Assembly: GCA_964604945.1 (NCBI GenBank)
Contig: CAZSBK010000005.1
Location: 3,185-67,184, forward strand
DNA from: an uncultured Candidatus Solibacter sp.
Lineage (GTDB): Bacteria; Acidobacteriota; Terriglobia; Bryobacterales; Bryobacteraceae
Length of the DNA: 64,000 nucleotides
Direction of reading: 5' to 3'
Under the pieces are notes generated by a model that was not told the DNA's origin, searched no databases, and saw only the letters and a list, made by a program, of their open reading frames with translations. The translations under genes and the position numbers were made by a program. Shown here piece by piece: positions 12,869 through 22,331 of this stretch. Position 1 is the first letter of the stretch; each line of letters begins with the position of its first letter.

Positions 12869-13207
12869 TCAGTGCTCACAGATGACTTCGCGAGAAACCA
12901 GTTGCCCATCCAGATAGAGCCGGACCAGCGCCTCAGGGCTCTCCTCCGGGGCGCCCGTGAAGACCTCAACCGCGAGGGCTTCAAACATCATCTTCGCCCG
13001 TGACCCCATGCCGCCGGCGATCACCACATTGACGCCCTGCTGCTCCAGCCACGGGGGCAACAGACTGGGTTGATGCTCTGGAGCGTCGATACCGGAAACG
13101 GCGGTGATCGTCCGCGTCTCCAGGTCCGCATCCACCAGCGCGAACCTCCTGCTATGTCCAAAATGCTGTGACAGCAGATCTCCCGCCACCGGTACCGCAA
13201 TTCGCAT
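12869..13207 (-). CDS. NifB/NifX-family (dinitrogenase FeMo-cofactor-binding domain) protein
   Basis: 112 aa. MRIAVPVAGDLLSQHFGHSRRFALVD...VNVVIAGGMGSRA is the typical pattern of this small domain family. Confidence 0.75.
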   Translation of the reverse strand: MRIAVPVAGDLLSQHFGHSRRFALVDADLETRTITAVSGIDAPEHQPSLLPPWLEQQGVNVVIAGGMGSRAKMMFEALAVEVFTGAPEESPEALVRLYLDGQLVSREVICEH

Positions 13208-13246
13208 CTCCAGGGATTCCTTTCAGCCGCCCGTTGCATGACGCGG

Positions 13247-13273
13247 CATCTAGTAGATGTAAGTCACATCTAG
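13247..13273. promoter_or_regulatory. Operator-like overlapping palindromes in the divergent NifX-like/trmO promoter
   Basis: CATCTAgTAGATGTaagtcACATCTAG has three alternating CATCTA/TAGATG half-sites. The ATGT-N5-ACATCTA core (13257-13272) recurs at 14438-14453. Confidence 0.4.
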
Positions 13274-13279
13274 AGTACA

Positions 13280-13789
13280 ATGGAGCCTATGAAGAAGTCA
13301 AGCCCGGGATTGCGGCCGCTGACGGTGGAGCCGATTGGAATGATTGAGACTCCGTTTCGCGAAGCCGCTGGCACCCCCATCCAGACCTCGCGCGCCGGCG
13401 GCGCGAGAGGACGGGTGAGGATTGACCCTCCGTTCCGAGACGGGTTGAGAGACCTGGAGGGCTTTGAGCGAATCTGGCTGACCTATTGGTTTCACCGCGC
13501 ATCCGGCTTCAACCTGGTAGTCACGCCGTTCCTGGATGTTCAGGAGCGGGGTGTCTTTGCCACCCGCGCTCCCCGCCGCCCGGTCCCGATCGGGATTTCG
13601 GTGGTCAGGCTGCTGTCCATCGGCGAAGGCGCAATTGAGGTGGCGGGCGTTGACATGCTCGACGGCACGCCGCTGCTCGACATCAGGCCGTACGTGCCGG
13701 AGTTCGATTCCTATCCCGGCAGCCGGGCCGGCTGGTTTGATGAATCCAATTCCACGCGGTGTAGCGCCGACGACAGATTTGACCTGTAA
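13280..13789 (+). CDS. trmO: tRNA (t6A37 N6)-methyltransferase TrmO (TsaA/YaeB family)
   Basis: IGMIETPFRE...GFERIWLTYWFHR...GVFATRAPRRPVPIGISVVRL...GVDMLDGTPLLDIRPYVPEFD are canonical TsaA motifs. Confidence 0.85.
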   Translation: MEPMKKSSPGLRPLTVEPIGMIETPFREAAGTPIQTSRAGGARGRVRIDPPFRDGLRDLEGFERIWLTYWFHRASGFNLVVTPFLDVQERGVFATRAPRRPVPIGISVVRLLSIGEGAIEVAGVDMLDGTPLLDIRPYVPEFDSYPGSRAGWFDESNSTRCSADDRFDL

Positions 13790-13902
13790 ACGGCTGTGAA
13801 AACCCTTCGCGCCGCATAATAGGTGGTTGTCGCATCTAGAACGTCGTGGTGCTATTCTCGGTCTTTGGTGGTCGCCCATCGCGGCGTGAACAGGAGTTCC
13901 GG

Positions 13903-14349
13903 ATGCCCAACAAGCTCTGTCCCAGGCATGGTGGCAACCACCCTTGCACCTGCGCAATGGGCAATCTCTACCGCTTCGTCGAGCCAGTGGCGTTGCTCCT
14001 GCTGAAGCGCAAGGGCCGGTCCTACGGCTACGACCTCGCCGGCGACATGCGCAAGTATGCGCTAACCGATGCCGAAATCGAGCGCGCCGCGCTCTACCGG
14101 ACGCTGCGCCAGTTGGAGTTGAATGGCAACGTGGCGTCGGAATGGGAAACCGACCAGGGTGGTCCGGCGAGGCGCGTCTACTGGCTCACGGCAGATGGCG
14201 AGCGCCACCTTGAGGAGTGGGCTTCAGTGCTCGAACACGTCTCCAAGTCGATGAGCCGGTTTACTCGCGAGGCGCGACGCCTGATTCGCAATGCGGGTGC
14301 TCCCAAAGCCGCATCGGCGAAGCCAGCCAGGAAAACCGCAGGCCGCTAA
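13903..14349 (+). CDS. PadR-family transcriptional regulator with an N-terminal Cys/His-rich segment
   Basis: FVEPVALLLLKRKGRSYGYDL...LYRTLRQLELNGNVASEWE...RRVYWLTADGE winged-helix pattern. N-terminus MPNKLCPRHGGNHPCTC. CAGGAG RBS lies 7 nt upstream of ATG 13903. Confidence 0.8.
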   Translation: MPNKLCPRHGGNHPCTCAMGNLYRFVEPVALLLLKRKGRSYGYDLAGDMRKYALTDAEIERAALYRTLRQLELNGNVASEWETDQGGPARRVYWLTADGERHLEEWASVLEHVSKSMSRFTREARRLIRNAGAPKAASAKPARKTAGR

Positions 14350-14749: not shown

Positions 14750-15109
14750 CTACTTCACCGTTTGTTGCGGTGGAACGGCCTGCTGGCCACCCCAGGCGCC
14801 CATCCCGCGGCCCATGCCACGACCGAAGCCGCGGCTCATGCCGCCGGCAAAGCCCCGGCCCCTACTCCGCATACCTGCCTGACCGCGGCCCCGGCCCCTT
14901 GCGCCCATCGCATTTTGACCCTGGCGTTGGCTGACAGGCTGGTTGGTGACATCGCAGACGCCGTCCTTGTTCTTGTCGTTCCAGGCGTGAGGCGCACCGC
15001 CTCGGCCGCGACCCATCGGCTGGCCTTCGGTGTTAGCGGCCGCCTGGCCCAAGGCCAATCCGGCCGTACCTATCGCCAATCCAAGCACCGTGATGAGAAC
15101 CTTGTTCAT
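14750..15109 (-). CDS. Secreted Arg/Gly-repeat protein (119 aa), unknown function
   Basis: Signal peptide MNKVLITVLGLAIGTAGLALGQAAA. DKNKDGVCD acidic loop. RGRGRG / GFGRGMGRGMG repeats. GCAGGAGG RBS. Confidence 0.6.
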   Translation of the reverse strand: MNKVLITVLGLAIGTAGLALGQAAANTEGQPMGRGRGGAPHAWNDKNKDGVCDVTNQPVSQRQGQNAMGARGRGRGQAGMRSRGRGFAGGMSRGFGRGMGRGMGAWGGQQAVPPQQTVK

Positions 15110-15247
15110 AACTGCCTCCTGCTATACCAGAAGCACAGCAGGTGCCGTTTGCGGGTCCGATGTGTTTTCAATGACTTGTTGGCAGGATACGGACGCGCCG
15201 GAATGCACTATTTGCGCATCGGCGAAAAACATGCGCAGACGGCACGG

Positions 15248-15685
15248 TCAAAGCTCGATTACGCTCAGGATTTCGTCCACGGGCGGCGCGCCCCGTTTGG
15301 CAAAGACAACCTTCGAGTCAGGCGAGATAACATAGACGGTTCGGCGGACCATCGGGCCCCATCCCGAACGAAATGCCCGCGCGATGCGTCCGCCGGTATC
15401 CACGATGAGAGGAAACTTCAGCCGGAGCTTTTCAATGTACTTCCTATGACTGATATCCGATGCCGGATTGACGCCATACACGATAGCGCCGGCGTCCTGA
15501 AGCCTCTCGATGGTAGCGCTCAGGGCACCCAACTGGCGGTTTCAACCCGGCGTGTCGTCGGCGGGATAGAAGACAAGCACGGCGAATCGGCCGGCGATGG
15601 TGGAGAGAGAAACAGTATTGCCCGCCTGGTCCCTGCCATGGAATTCCGGCGCGGGCGCGCCAACGGGGATCGGTGCGCCTACCAT
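15248..15685 (-). CDS. Bcp/PrxQ-type peroxiredoxin with in-frame TGA at the peroxidatic Cys position (selenocysteine candidate; alternatively a pseudogene)
   Basis: Track ORFs 15542..15805 and 15248..15532 are in the same frame and separated only by TGA at 15541-15543. The joined product is MVGAPIPVGAPAPEFHG...VLVFYPADDTPG-[TGA]-NRQLGALSATIERLQDAGAIVYGVN.... The conserved FYPxxxTPGC motif places the catalytic Cys exactly at the TGA. Confidence 0.7.
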
Positions 15686-15690
15686 GAAGC

Positions 15691-16125
15691 TCAGTTTTGC
15701 ACGAACGACAGCAGCCGTTCGTGCACTGCCTTGGCCCGCTGATCGTCCCAACAGGCGATGAGCACGGTATCGTCGCCTGCGATGGTGCCGGCGATTTCGG
15801 CCCAATCTTCCTGATCCAGGGCGACAGCAAGCGAACTGGCGCTACCGACCGAGGTCTTCAGGATGACCAGGCTTTGCGCCAGGCGGACGTCGAGCAGGTA
15901 TTCGGACATGACCGTGGCCAGATCGGGGCCGGTGGGGTCGGGCAGTATCTCGACATAGCCCTCACTGGTTTTGGCGAGTCCCATTTCGCGCAGATCGCGC
16001 GACAGCGTCACCTGGGTGGCTTCAATGCCCTGGGTGCGGAGCTCGCGGGAGAGTTCCTCCTGCGTCTGGATGCGCTTCGCGCGGATGAGTTTGAGGATCT
16101 GTCCCTGGCGGTAGTTCTTGGTCAT
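15691..16125 (-). CDS. argR: Arginine repressor ArgR
   Basis: RQGQILKLIRAKRIQTQEELSRELRTQGIEATQVTLSRDLREMGL plus C-terminal GTIAGDDTVL. 4-nt overlap with argH. Confidence 0.9.
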   Translation of the reverse strand: MTKNYRQGQILKLIRAKRIQTQEELSRELRTQGIEATQVTLSRDLREMGLAKTSEGYVEILPDPTGPDLATVMSEYLLDVRLAQSLVILKTSVGSASSLAVALDQEDWAEIAGTIAGDDTVLIACWDDQRAKAVHERLLSFVQN

Positions 16126-17534
16126 GAGAGTTTCTCCAAACGGGTGCGGGCTTCACTGAGCGCCGCCAGAACGGTTTCAGGGGCCGTGCCGCCATGGGCG
16201 CGGCGGGTTTTCATGCCCTGGCCGGGGTCCATCAGCGAGGCCATTTCCGGCGTGAAACGAGGGTCAAAGGCAACCAGAGCGTCAGGTGTCCAATCCGCCG
16301 GCTTCTTGCCGGTCTGGACCGATTCAAGCACGAGCTGGCCTGCCAGGACGTGCGCCTGGTGGAACGCCACGCCCGAGCGGGCCAGCGCCTCGGCCAGATC
16401 GGTGGCGACCACCCAGGAGTCTTCAGCTGCCTGGCGGGGACGCTCGGGCTTCAGCGAGGTCGTATCGATCACCTCGCGCACCATCTCAAGCGAGGAGGCC
16501 AGCGTATCGGCGGCATCGAATAGCTGTTCCTTGTCCTCCTGCATGTCGCGATTGTAGGTCATCGGCAGGCCCTTCATCAGCACCAGCACGGCGGTGAGGG
16601 CGCCGATGACGCGGCCCGACTTGCCGCGCACCAACTCCATCGAATCCGGGTTCTTCTTCTGCGGCATCAGCGAACTGCCGCTGGTGACGCCGTCGCCAAG
16701 CTCCAGCCAATCGAACTCCTCGCTGCTGTAAAGGATCCAGTCCTCAGCCAGGCGCGACAAGTGGACCATGGCGATGGAGGCGGCCGAGAGAAAATCGAGT
16801 ACGAAGTCGCGGTCGCCGGAGACATCCATCGAATTCAGCGTGATCGATTCGAAGCCCAGTTCGGAAGCCAGCGCCACGCGGTCCACAGGGAAGCCTGAAC
16901 CGGCCAGAGCGCCCGAGCCGAGAGGCATCACGTTGACGCGGGAACGGGCCTGGGTGAGGCGCTCATGGTCGCGCATCAGCATCTCGTAGTACGCCAGCAG
17001 GTAGTGGGGCCACAGCACGGCCTGGGCCCGGCGCATATGCGTGTAGCCGGGAACCACGGCTTCGGGATACCGTGCGGCGAGATCGAGCAGGGCCGACATG
17101 AGGCCGCGGAGAAGGCCAAGCGTCCCGTCGATTCTCCCGCGCAGCCAGAGCCGCGTGTCGAGCGAGACCTGCTCGTTGCGGCTGCGGCCCGTATGAATCT
17201 TGTCGGCCACCGGGCCCGCTTTTTCCTTCAGGCAGCCGATGACGTAGGTGTGGACGTCCTCGTCGTTTGACTGAGCGGCGGAGTCGGGATCGATCGAAGC
17301 CAGAGCCTTGCAGATTGTGGAGGCCTCATCAGACGTGAGGATGCCGACCCGGGTCAGCGCCCGCGCATAGGCCTGCGATCCTTCAATGTCGGCGCCGATC
17401 AGCCGGCGATCAAAGTGGAGCGACCCCGAGAATCGTTCAAACGTGGGCGATGGGCCGGACTTGAACCGTCCACCCCACAGCTTCATCGGCTTCTGGCCGG
17501 CTGTTTCTTGTCGGTTATCGTTTTCGTCAGCCAT
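16122..17534 (-). CDS. argH: Argininosuccinate lyase
   Basis: 470 aa. WGGRF start, GYTHMRRAQ, and the GSSLMPQKKNPDSMELVRGK fumarate-lyase signature. Confidence 0.95.
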   Translation of the reverse strand: MADENDNRQETAGQKPMKLWGGRFKSGPSPTFERFSGSLHFDRRLIGADIEGSQAYARALTRVGILTSDEASTICKALASIDPDSAAQSNDEDVHTYVIGCLKEKAGPVADKIHTGRSRNEQVSLDTRLWLRGRIDGTLGLLRGLMSALLDLAARYPEAVVPGYTHMRRAQAVLWPHYLLAYYEMLMRDHERLTQARSRVNVMPLGSGALAGSGFPVDRVALASELGFESITLNSMDVSGDRDFVLDFLSAASIAMVHLSRLAEDWILYSSEEFDWLELGDGVTSGSSLMPQKKNPDSMELVRGKSGRVIGALTAVLVLMKGLPMTYNRDMQEDKEQLFDAADTLASSLEMVREVIDTTSLKPERPRQAAEDSWVVATDLAEALARSGVAFHQAHVLAGQLVLESVQTGKKPADWTPDALVAFDPRFTPEMASLMDPGQGMKTRRAHGGTAPETVLAALSEARTRLEKLS

Positions 17535-17546
17535 ACGGTCGAAATC

Positions 17547-18512
17547 CTAGATTGCCCGCGCGCCGAGCATCAGCATCAGCGCTTTCTGAGCATGAAGCCG
17601 GTTTTCGGCCTGTTCGAAGACCACCGAGGCGGGCGATTCCATCACCTCGTCGGTGGTTTCCTCCTCGCGGTGGGCGGGCAGGCAATGCATGAACAATGCG
17701 CCGGGCGCCGCCATGCGCATCAGGCCGGTATTCACCTGGTAGGAGGCGAACAGGCGGGCGCGCTCGGCCGCTTCGTGTTCCTGTCCCATCGAAGCCCAAA
17801 CGTCAGTGTAAACGGCTTCCGCCCCGGCCAGACCCTCGTCGACCGACGTCGTGGCGATGATTTCCGCGCCTGTCGCCGCGGCCATGCTCCGCGCTGTCGC
17901 CAGGATTTCGGCTGACGGCTCATAGCCCGGCGGAGTGATACAAGCGAAATGGATGCCTAACCGGGCGGAGTCGAGCATCAGCGAGTGCGCGACATTGTTG
18001 CCGTCGCCGACGAAGGCCAGCTTGTGGCCCTGCCACTGGCCCCAGTGTTCCCTTAGCGTGAGCATATCGGCCAGCGCCTGGCAGGGATGGTAGAGGTCGC
18101 TAAGGGCGTTGATCACCGGGACACTCGCCCATCGGGCCAGTTCGTCCACCGTGTTCTGGGCGAATGTCCGGGCGACGAGCATCGTCGTCCAGCGTTCGAG
18201 ATTCCGGGCCACGTCCTTCACCGGCTCGCGGCCGCCGATCGGCCCGGTATACAGAATCGAGTCGCCGCCCAATTGCTTGGCCGCCACCTCAAATGTGACA
18301 CGTGTCCGCAGCGATGGTTTTTCGAATAGAAGGCTGACCACGTTGCCTGCGAGTGCCTTGGCGTAGGCCTGAGGCACGCGTTTGACGTCCGCGGCCAGTT
18401 CCAGGCACGAGTTGAGTTCAGCGACTGTCAGGTCCAGGTCGGAACGTACGTTGGCCGCCTCGACTGGAATCGGTGCGCGTGGCGGCGCGATAGGGGAGGA
18501 ATCGATAGTCAT
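17547..18512 (-). CDS. argF: Ornithine carbamoyltransferase
   Basis: SLRTRVTFE, HPCQALAD, and HCLPAHREEE motifs. 321 aa. Confidence 0.9.
   Translation of the reverse strand: MTIDSSPIAPPRAPIPVEAANVRSDLDLTVAELNSCLELAADVKRVPQAYAKALAGNVVSLLFEKPSLRTRVTFEVAAKQLGGDSILYTGPIGGREPVKDVARNLERWTTMLVARTFAQNTVDELARWASVPVINALSDLYHPCQALADMLTLREHWGQWQGHKLAFVGDGNNVAHSLMLDSARLGIHFACITPPGYEPSAEILATARSMAAATGAEIIATTSVDEGLAGAEAVYTDVWASMGQEHEAAERARLFASYQVNTGLMRMAAPGALFMHCLPAHREEETTDEVMESPASVVFEQAENRLHAQKALMLMLGARAI

Positions 18513-18713: not shown

Positions 18714-22331
<3,618 letters not shown>

Follow-up and report, generated by a model that had tools for sequence, protein, structure and literature searches.

A UGA codon at the peroxidatic position of a Bcp/PrxQ-type peroxiredoxin gene, probably read as selenocysteine, in an uncultured Candidatus Solibacter sp.

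The gene, its active site and its relatives

The question raised by this locus is how a UGA codon can stand exactly where a peroxiredoxin carries its catalytic cysteine (Cys), as the only internal stop of the gene. The locus belongs to an uncultured Candidatus Solibacter sp. (Acidobacteriota, Bryobacteraceae) and was analysed within a stretch of 64,000 nucleotides (nt), hereafter the window, of contig CAZSBK010000005.1 in assembly GCA_964604945.1, a metagenome contig of 65.8 kb (JGI sample 3300010352). An earlier reading of this DNA made without database searches (the sequence-only reading) had proposed that the gene, here called prx, is a candidate selenoprotein gene. Our comparative analysis led us to consider it probable, at about 0.87, that the UGA is decoded as selenocysteine (Sec, U) in a functional Bcp/PrxQ-type peroxiredoxin of 145 residues. 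The two features on which the argument depends are the following.

15248..15685, minus strand: prx, coding sequence of the complete peroxiredoxin by translation, 145 codons plus stop, with U at codon 48
15542..15544, minus strand: in-frame UGA, presumed Sec codon 48, at the peroxidatic Cys position of the PxxxTxxC motif

Translation of the minus strand gave a frame from the ATG at 15685-15683 to the TGA at 15250-15248, whose sole internal stop is codon 48. Two open reading frames (ORFs) of that strand, 15542..15805 and 15248..15532, share this frame. The sequence-only reading had described both as parted by a TGA, and this was borne out when frame and ORFs were read again; the TGA itself was also found, although at 15544-15542 and not at 15541-15543, one base off. 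Across the stop, translation of the joined frame gives ...FAVLVFYPADDTPG-[TGA]-NRQLGALSATIERLQDAG..., identical to the peptide quoted at that time. The argR gene, immediately upstream, itself terminates with TGA, and UGA is therefore an ordinary stop codon in the host organism. Gene callers break prx in two at the TGA, both in the window and in related genomes.

For the protein domain search a Cys was placed at codon 48. Residues 8-128 of the product matched positions 1-123 of the 124 of the Pfam profile AhpC-TSA (PF00578), with an E value of 1.2e-30 and a score of 106.4 bits against a gathering cut-off of 26, and thus the domain is present at full length. The best matches in the PDB were Bcp/PrxQ peroxiredoxins (3drn, 5enu and 5iox; E = 3e-14 to 1e-11), and codon 48 aligns with the peroxidatic C of TPGC in 5enu and 5iox. 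The motif P41-A-D-D-T45-P-G-[UGA]48 follows the PxxxTxxC pattern with U in the last position. Downstream, R115-T-V-Y-V-I is invariant in the orthologue alignment, and R115 matches the R of ...RSTFLID in 5enu, that is, the catalytic Arg. P41, T45 and R115 do not change across the relatives, and the column of codon 48 is an invariant Cys among the Cys homologues. The proposal that the TGA occupies the peroxidatic Cys column of the Bcp/PrxQ family was therefore upheld by the Pfam, the solved-structure and the orthologue alignments alike.

The translated protein has no Cys residue at all. The resolving-Cys site of PrxQ, five residues past the peroxidatic residue, is Gly53 in prx, and the protein is accordingly predicted to be of the 1-Cys (here 1-Sec) Bcp type. 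Having no Cys, such an enzyme would have to be regenerated by an external thiol and would depend on an external reductant. The CxxxxC or UxxxxC arrangement is kept in the Cys relatives P0002 and P0007 and in the Sec lineages L103, L148 and L150, the resolving Cys of L103, L148 and L150/151 being found in the sequence UTKQLCQ. Scores against the curated NCBIfam models were 68.9 bits for PrxQ (NF053650; cut-off 260), 54 bits for Bcp (PRK09437; cut-off 140) and 36.8 bits for PrxU (NF040737; cut-off 270). Judged by these profile scores, the prx protein belongs to the Pfam family but stands outside the equivalogs defined by the curated models, of which PrxQ and Bcp come nearest to it.

The set of homologues consisted of contigs read behind protein-search matches, plus one scan each of genome and metagenome collections. 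A TGA was present in the codon-48 column of 23 distinct sequences, and TGC or TGT in the same column of 55-56 homologues; the Cys/Sec pair that the sequence-only reading had suspected is thus observed. The protein search also gave full-length Cys homologues and at least 13 clusters of fragments of 81-104 amino acids (aa) starting just past the Cys column. The named TGA carriers are metagenome-assembled genomes (MAGs) of Candidatus Solibacter, Bryobacteraceae and Bryobacterales, and the TGA recurs in independent assemblies from NCBI, ENA, JGI and Logan. The metagenome scan returned few close relatives, but it uncovered independent Sec lineages.

In a neighbour-joining tree one large Sec clade included the window and had a Cys member (L017) nested within it, while at least four further Sec lineages (L103, L135, L148 and L150/151; TGA at L103:982, L135:1633, L148:1630, L150:1642 and L151:1015) were scattered among Cys forms. 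The TGA is hence retained across at least five lineages. Repeated Cys-to-Sec conversions have been reported for peroxiredoxins (PMC1794560), and the scattered Sec lineages fit with that.

The orthologues align with prx from end to end. In the main Sec clade, a set of 16 diverged sequences gave a ratio of nonsynonymous to synonymous divergence (dN/dS) of 0.25 for the part preceding the TGA and 0.26 for the part behind it, and neither other stops nor frameshifts were found in these 16 sequences despite a proportion of synonymous differences (pS) of about 0.59, which is near saturation. The sharing of the TGA by relatives with other disabling lesions, which had been proposed as the sign of a pseudogene, was looked for and not found in the 16. 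Equal dN/dS on both sides, together with the lack of extra lesions at near-saturated pS, argues that the downstream part is translated. From these conservation and selection data, a pseudogene, an assembly error and a functionless downstream remnant are excluded.

RNA structure downstream of the UGA

If the UGA is read as Sec, a Sec insertion sequence (SECIS) would be expected in the RNA that follows it. Nucleotides were numbered from the U of the UGA (nt 1), and three structures had to be considered.

15491..15529 (nt 16-54), minus strand: hairpin 1, about 13 base pairs (bp) with mismatches, from the minimum free energy (MFE) fold and RNAalifold
15471..15489 (nt 56-74), minus strand: hairpin 2, stem of 7 bp with the pentaloop CGUGU, 59 nt from the UGA, from RNAalifold
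15517..15538, minus strand: stem-loop put forward by the sequence-only reading as a possible SECIS, not supported as a functional element

Hairpin 1 is 39 nt long, begins 12 nt past the UGA and has its apical loop about 27-29 nt past it. In its lower stem 76.5% of cells were paired, and slid controls gave 25-50%, the basal pairs being the best kept and the loop varying. The window copy of hairpin 2 has two G.U pairs among its seven, and all the synonymous-site changes in this hairpin preserve pairing, including an A-U/G-C alternation at 61/69 that is split 9:9. With the nine closest orthologues, RNAalifold placed both hairpins in the consensus; with all 18 main-clade sequences hairpin 2 alone was recovered, since the register of hairpin 1 in its upper part differs from one subgroup to another.

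More structure was found in Sec forms than in Cys forms. Mean MFE was -20.3 kcal/mol for Sec and -12.6 kcal/mol for Cys forms in the region of hairpin 1, and -9.5 and -3.9 kcal/mol, respectively, in that of hairpin 2, with p about 1e-8 in each case for sequences that are phylogenetically non-independent. Compared with synonymous recoding, the mean z score of hairpin 1 was -1.65 in Sec and 0.06 in Cys forms, and that of hairpin 2 was -1.66 and -0.19. A 7-bp stem closed by an N-G-U-N-N pentaloop was present in all the 23 Sec forms and in 11 of the 56 Cys forms. A weaker hairpin 2 occurs in 10/56 Cys forms (L019, L031, L040, L112 and others, at spacing 59) because the protein motif G-V-x-V-F/Y-G-V partly encodes it.

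Some observations on Cys forms stand apart from this comparison. The motifs Q-L-R-D-N-W and G-V-x-V-F-G-V encode inverted repeats, and the Cys form L096 has a weaker hairpin at spacing 21; latent structure arising from such motifs may ease Cys-to-Sec conversion in the peroxiredoxin family. The gene of the Bryobacteraceae MAG JACADU01 (TGC at L017:3019), which is the Cys form inside the main Sec clade and also lies behind argR, keeps a strong hairpin 2 (-10.6 kcal/mol), and it may represent a recent Sec-to-Cys reversion with a relic RNA element.

The published model of the bacterial SECIS (bSECIS) has an apical loop of 3-9 nt with G in its first two positions and an upper stem of at least 4 bp, located 16-37 nt from the UGA, with an MFE of -7.5 kcal/mol or lower (PMC13188914). 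These rules were applied through our own strict and relaxed implementations. Hairpin 1 fits the model in distance but not in its loop, since a loop G or GU is absent in most orthologues, whereas hairpin 2 fits it in stem and loop (CGUGU) but not in its distance of 59 nt. Neither implementation found a canonical bSECIS in most of the window's clade. The independent Sec lineages L103, L148 and L150/151 carry a canonical 7-bp stem with the pentaloop CGUGA 21 nt past the UGA, and L135, a separate Sec lineage with Cys sisters, has both hairpins as in the window's clade.

The SECIS that the sequence-only reading had drawn (CGCCAG...CUGAGCG) did not survive this comparison. It can be drawn here, but its loop lies 9 nt past the UGA, against the 16-37 nt of the model, and has no G at positions one and two. 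Across 18 orthologues its pairing holds in 61% of cells, three of the six pairs being unpaired in 12 of these sequences, and it is mutually exclusive with the better-conserved hairpin 1. A search of the whole 64-kb window against Rfam at gathering thresholds gave no match.

A tentative explanation, to which we would not give even odds, is a bridged SECIS of two hairpins in which hairpin 2 would bind SelB and hairpin 1 would be a self-folding spacer, leaving an effective distance of about 20 nt. When hairpin 1 is taken as a folded spacer (59 - 39 = 20), that distance matches the 19-21 nt found in the other Sec-peroxiredoxin lineages and in acidobacterial fdhA. The bridged arrangement is also supported by the presence of the stem and loop type of hairpin 2 at 21 nt in independent Sec lineages, by the sharing of both hairpins with L135, and by the good conservation of the base of hairpin 1 with a varying loop. 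Against it stand the overlap of hairpin 2 with a conserved protein motif and the weaker copies in those 10/56 Cys forms. Alternatively, hairpin 1 itself could be a non-consensus SECIS. If the bridged structure is true, it lies outside the current bacterial consensus model, and it would widen the model used by selenoprotein finders, by which such genes are currently missed.

Decoding of the UGA and the alternatives to selenocysteine

Sec decoding requires its own machinery, and this was found at the level of the lineage. For Solibacter usitatus, SelA, SelB and two Sec-FdhA sequences are on record (PMC1794560 supplements), and four selenoproteins in three families have been listed for the Acidobacteria (PMC1794560). 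SelA clusters with an identity of 72% or more to S. usitatus SelA numbered more than 120, some of them named Bryobacteraceae. N-terminal fragments of acidobacterial FdhA ending at the Sec codon made up at least 120 clusters, called as proteins of 188-193 aa. The two fdhA genes that were read (L179 and L180) show the standard bSECIS layout, with the following elements.

L179:1765-1805: hairpin with GU-containing loop in acidobacterial fdhA, about 19 nt past the Sec UGA
L180:1768-1808: hairpin with GU-containing loop in acidobacterial fdhA, about 19 nt past the Sec UGA

The Sec trait is hence present in the lineage, and the support that it gives to prx is at that level only.

Several results weigh against Sec decoding of prx. 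ARAGORN found neither a tRNA-Sec nor any other tRNA in the 64-kb window, and tblastn with E. coli SelA, SelB and SelD gave no true selA, selB or selD match in the window or in the fetched loci; the absence of these genes from 64 kb is expected. SelA was not tied to prx-carrying genomes, the two SelA look-ups having fallen in GCA_965185055.1 and GCA_025361425.1. No bSECIS conforming to the rules was identified at 16-37 nt in the window by either implementation, the window's hairpin 1 is the weakest of its clade (z = -0.35 against synonymous recoding), and the 81-nt fold starting just upstream of the UGA is unremarkable (z = 0.12 against dinucleotide shuffles). To these must be added the shared ancestry of the sequences in the MFE comparisons.

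During the searches for the machinery, one SelB match in L074 was discarded as it looks like a generic GTPase domain, and the tRNA beside selA in the two SelA-carrying assemblies proved to be a tRNA-Pro and not a tRNA-Sec. In both acidobacterial MAGs (L177:2295-2371 and L178:74-150) this tRNA-Pro(CGG) sits directly upstream of selA and is encoded on the other strand. An N-terminal extension (…GEWIRTTGLLVPNQALYQAEPRPE…) is present in the S. usitatus SelA given in the 2006 supplement, and it looks like read-through into such a tRNA gene, that is, a probably over-extended start call.

Of the explanations that do without Sec, the one that survives best, and still an improbable one, is selenium-free read-through, in which near-cognate or suppressor decoding, or SelB with a Cys-tRNASec, would place Cys, Trp or another residue at the UGA and the hairpins would do no more than stimulate the read-through. 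That the RNA structure misfits the standard bSECIS model and that the Sec machinery is not tied to the same genome would agree with this. However, the recoded site is exactly the redox-active Cys, by which Sec/Cys pairs are recognised, SelA, SelB and other selenoproteins exist in the lineage, and the canonical GU-pentaloop hairpin stands at 21 nt in independent Sec lineages; furthermore, a TGC codon would give Cys at no cost.

Less credible is a true stop in a pseudogene, in which a peptide of 47 residues would be made and the 97 codons downstream would be a decaying remnant. Gene callers treat prx in this way, and both the contig without detected sel genes and the lack of a canonical bSECIS at normal spacing could be read so. 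Nevertheless, a decaying remnant disagrees with the near-identical dN/dS of the two parts, with the intact frame of 16 sequences at near-saturated synonymous divergence and with the keeping of the TGA in 23 distinct sequences of at least five lineages.

It is less credible again that prx encodes a split enzyme, in which the 47-aa part and one of about 94 aa, started at the TTG at 15532, would come together in a peroxiredoxin-like fold that lacks the catalytic residue. This TTG lies 9 nt past the TGA and gene callers do predict the 94-aa ORF, yet from one orthologue to another the predicted internal starts change in residue (L, M or V) and in position, the codons in between (N/T-R/A-Q) show coding conservation, and the peroxidatic residue would be lost although P41, T45 and R115 are invariant. 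Finally, a sequencing or assembly error turning TGC into TGA, only a single-base difference from a Cys codon, is already refuted by the replication of the TGA in the independent NCBI, ENA, JGI and Logan assemblies.

With Sec at codon 48, which we infer to be the inserted residue, the following mechanism can be proposed. SelB with Sec-tRNASec would be recruited by RNA structure within 75 nt past the UGA, probably by one of the two hairpins, and the ribosome would read through. The selenolate, activated by T45 and R115, would then reduce the peroxide and become a selenenic acid, and an external thiol, presumably thioredoxin, glutaredoxin or a low-molecular-weight thiol, would regenerate the enzyme.

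Known selenoproteins and genomic surroundings

Among the prokaryotic selenoproteins, peroxiredoxins with a TxxU motif form an established family (PMC13188914), and the Bcp-type Sec-peroxiredoxins were catalogued by Zhang, Romero, Salinas and Gladyshev in 2006 (PMC1794560), so the statement of the sequence-only reading that these proteins form an established bacterial class was correct. Examples in that catalogue are Symbiobacterium thermophilum (...FYPKDNTPGUNRQLAAARD...) and Geobacter metallireducens (...FYPKDSTPGUTKEANGF...). The prx protein shares with them the PF00578 domain, the PxxxTxxU motif with a peroxidatic U and an about equal size; the Symbiobacterium protein even has the same TPGUNRQL motif, although it is only 35% identical to that of the window. 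Unlike those of 2006, prx belongs to the Acidobacteriota (Bryobacteraceae/Solibacter-type) and lies in an arg operon. Neither implementation of the rules identified a canonical bSECIS at 16-37 nt in the window or in most of its clade.

PrxU (NF040737), the Sec-peroxiredoxin type that has been studied by experiment and the verified peroxiredoxin selenoprotein in PMC13188914, is alike in its peroxidatic Sec and thioredoxin fold, but it is of another subfamily and the window protein is about 90 residues shorter than its model of 233 positions. With the Cys-type Bcp/PrxQ proteins (E. coli Bcp PRK09437; 3drn, 5enu, 5iox) prx has in common the fold and the catalytic Pro, Thr and Arg, and it differs in having U for the peroxidatic Cys, Gly53 for the resolving Cys and no other Cys. 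As for the SECIS, the window resembles the E. coli fdhF type in having hairpins inside the coding region just past the UGA, and hairpin 2 has the small G-U loop and a 7-bp stem. In contrast, its GU-loop hairpin is at 59 nt and its hairpin at canonical distance has no loop G or GU in most orthologues, while the related acidobacterial FdhA genes and the other Sec-peroxiredoxin lineages show the standard layout at 19-21 nt.

Therefore, prx is a mis-annotated selenoprotein gene of an already known class, if the UGA is decoded as proposed, and the basic picture, in which Sec-containing Bcp-type peroxiredoxins are known, is unchanged. What goes beyond that picture is the clade-wide link to arginine biosynthesis genes, the total lack of Cys, and two Sec-specific hairpins where the consensus SECIS is absent. 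It had been anticipated that gene callers would split or drop prx, and its fragments were indeed found in protein sets: in public collections the prx genes of this clade appear under the name 'hypothetical protein' or as fragments, of 47 aa and of roughly 81-104 aa. Joining the fragments recovers an intact antioxidant enzyme and adds soil Bryobacteraceae/Solibacter-type bacteria to the users of Sec-peroxiredoxin. Moreover, the repeated Sec/Cys switching among close relatives offers a natural series for studying what Sec buys a peroxiredoxin.

The neighbouring features on the minus strand are given next, the three arg genes being ORFs with Pfam labels.

17547-18512, minus strand: argF
16122-17534, minus strand: argH
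15691-16125, minus strand: argR, its stop 5 nt before the ATG of prx
15230..15246, minus strand: weak terminator-like stem of 5 bp followed by TTTTT, directly past the prx stop, identified by consensus match only

The product of argR scored 122.7 bits against the NCBIfam ArgR model, slightly under the cut-off of 130.45. The start of prx at ATG 15685, 5 nt past the argR stop, was confirmed. The order argF-argH-argR-prx recurs in relatives, where prx starts 3-5 nt past the argR stop, and holds across the main Sec clade wherever upstream DNA exists as well as in L135. Since some Cys forms (L017, L111 and L142) also sit behind ArgR, the operon association predates the Sec/Cys switches. It is likely from this arrangement that prx is co-transcribed with the arg genes, as the last cistron of a conserved argF-argH-argR-prx unit. 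The placing of prx at the end of the arg operon by the sequence-only reading thus agrees with the conserved synteny, but the pairing that it called odd is clade-wide.

Just downstream of prx, an ORF of 119 aa (14750-15109, minus strand) has a signal-peptide-like N-terminus and a repetitive tail rich in Gly, Arg and Met (GRGMGRGMG...). It had no match in Pfam or NCBIfam, and L008 has a gene of 132 aa in the same place. Neighbouring genes were also noted in the region 12869-14349. One encodes a protein of 112 aa with a match to the C-terminal domain of MrpORP, which carries iron-sulfur clusters; the other two, both on the plus strand, are a TrmO-like ORF (13280-13789) and the gene of a regulator of the PadR family (13846-14349).

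When the window was scanned crudely for in-frame TGAs flanked on both sides by high G+C at third codon positions, five weak candidate sites came up: 29545, 38262 and 45310 on the plus strand, and 3625 and 53375 on the minus strand. None of them has a redox motif, in a scan whose threshold missed prx itself and which is thus uninformative; non-coding frames that overlap in GC-rich DNA are their probable source. On the other side of the arg genes, a hybrid sensor kinase of 1205 aa (18714-22331, plus strand; Reg_prop repeats, HisKA, HATPase and receiver) is divergent from argF, and this divergent arrangement is kept in L002, L006 and L008.

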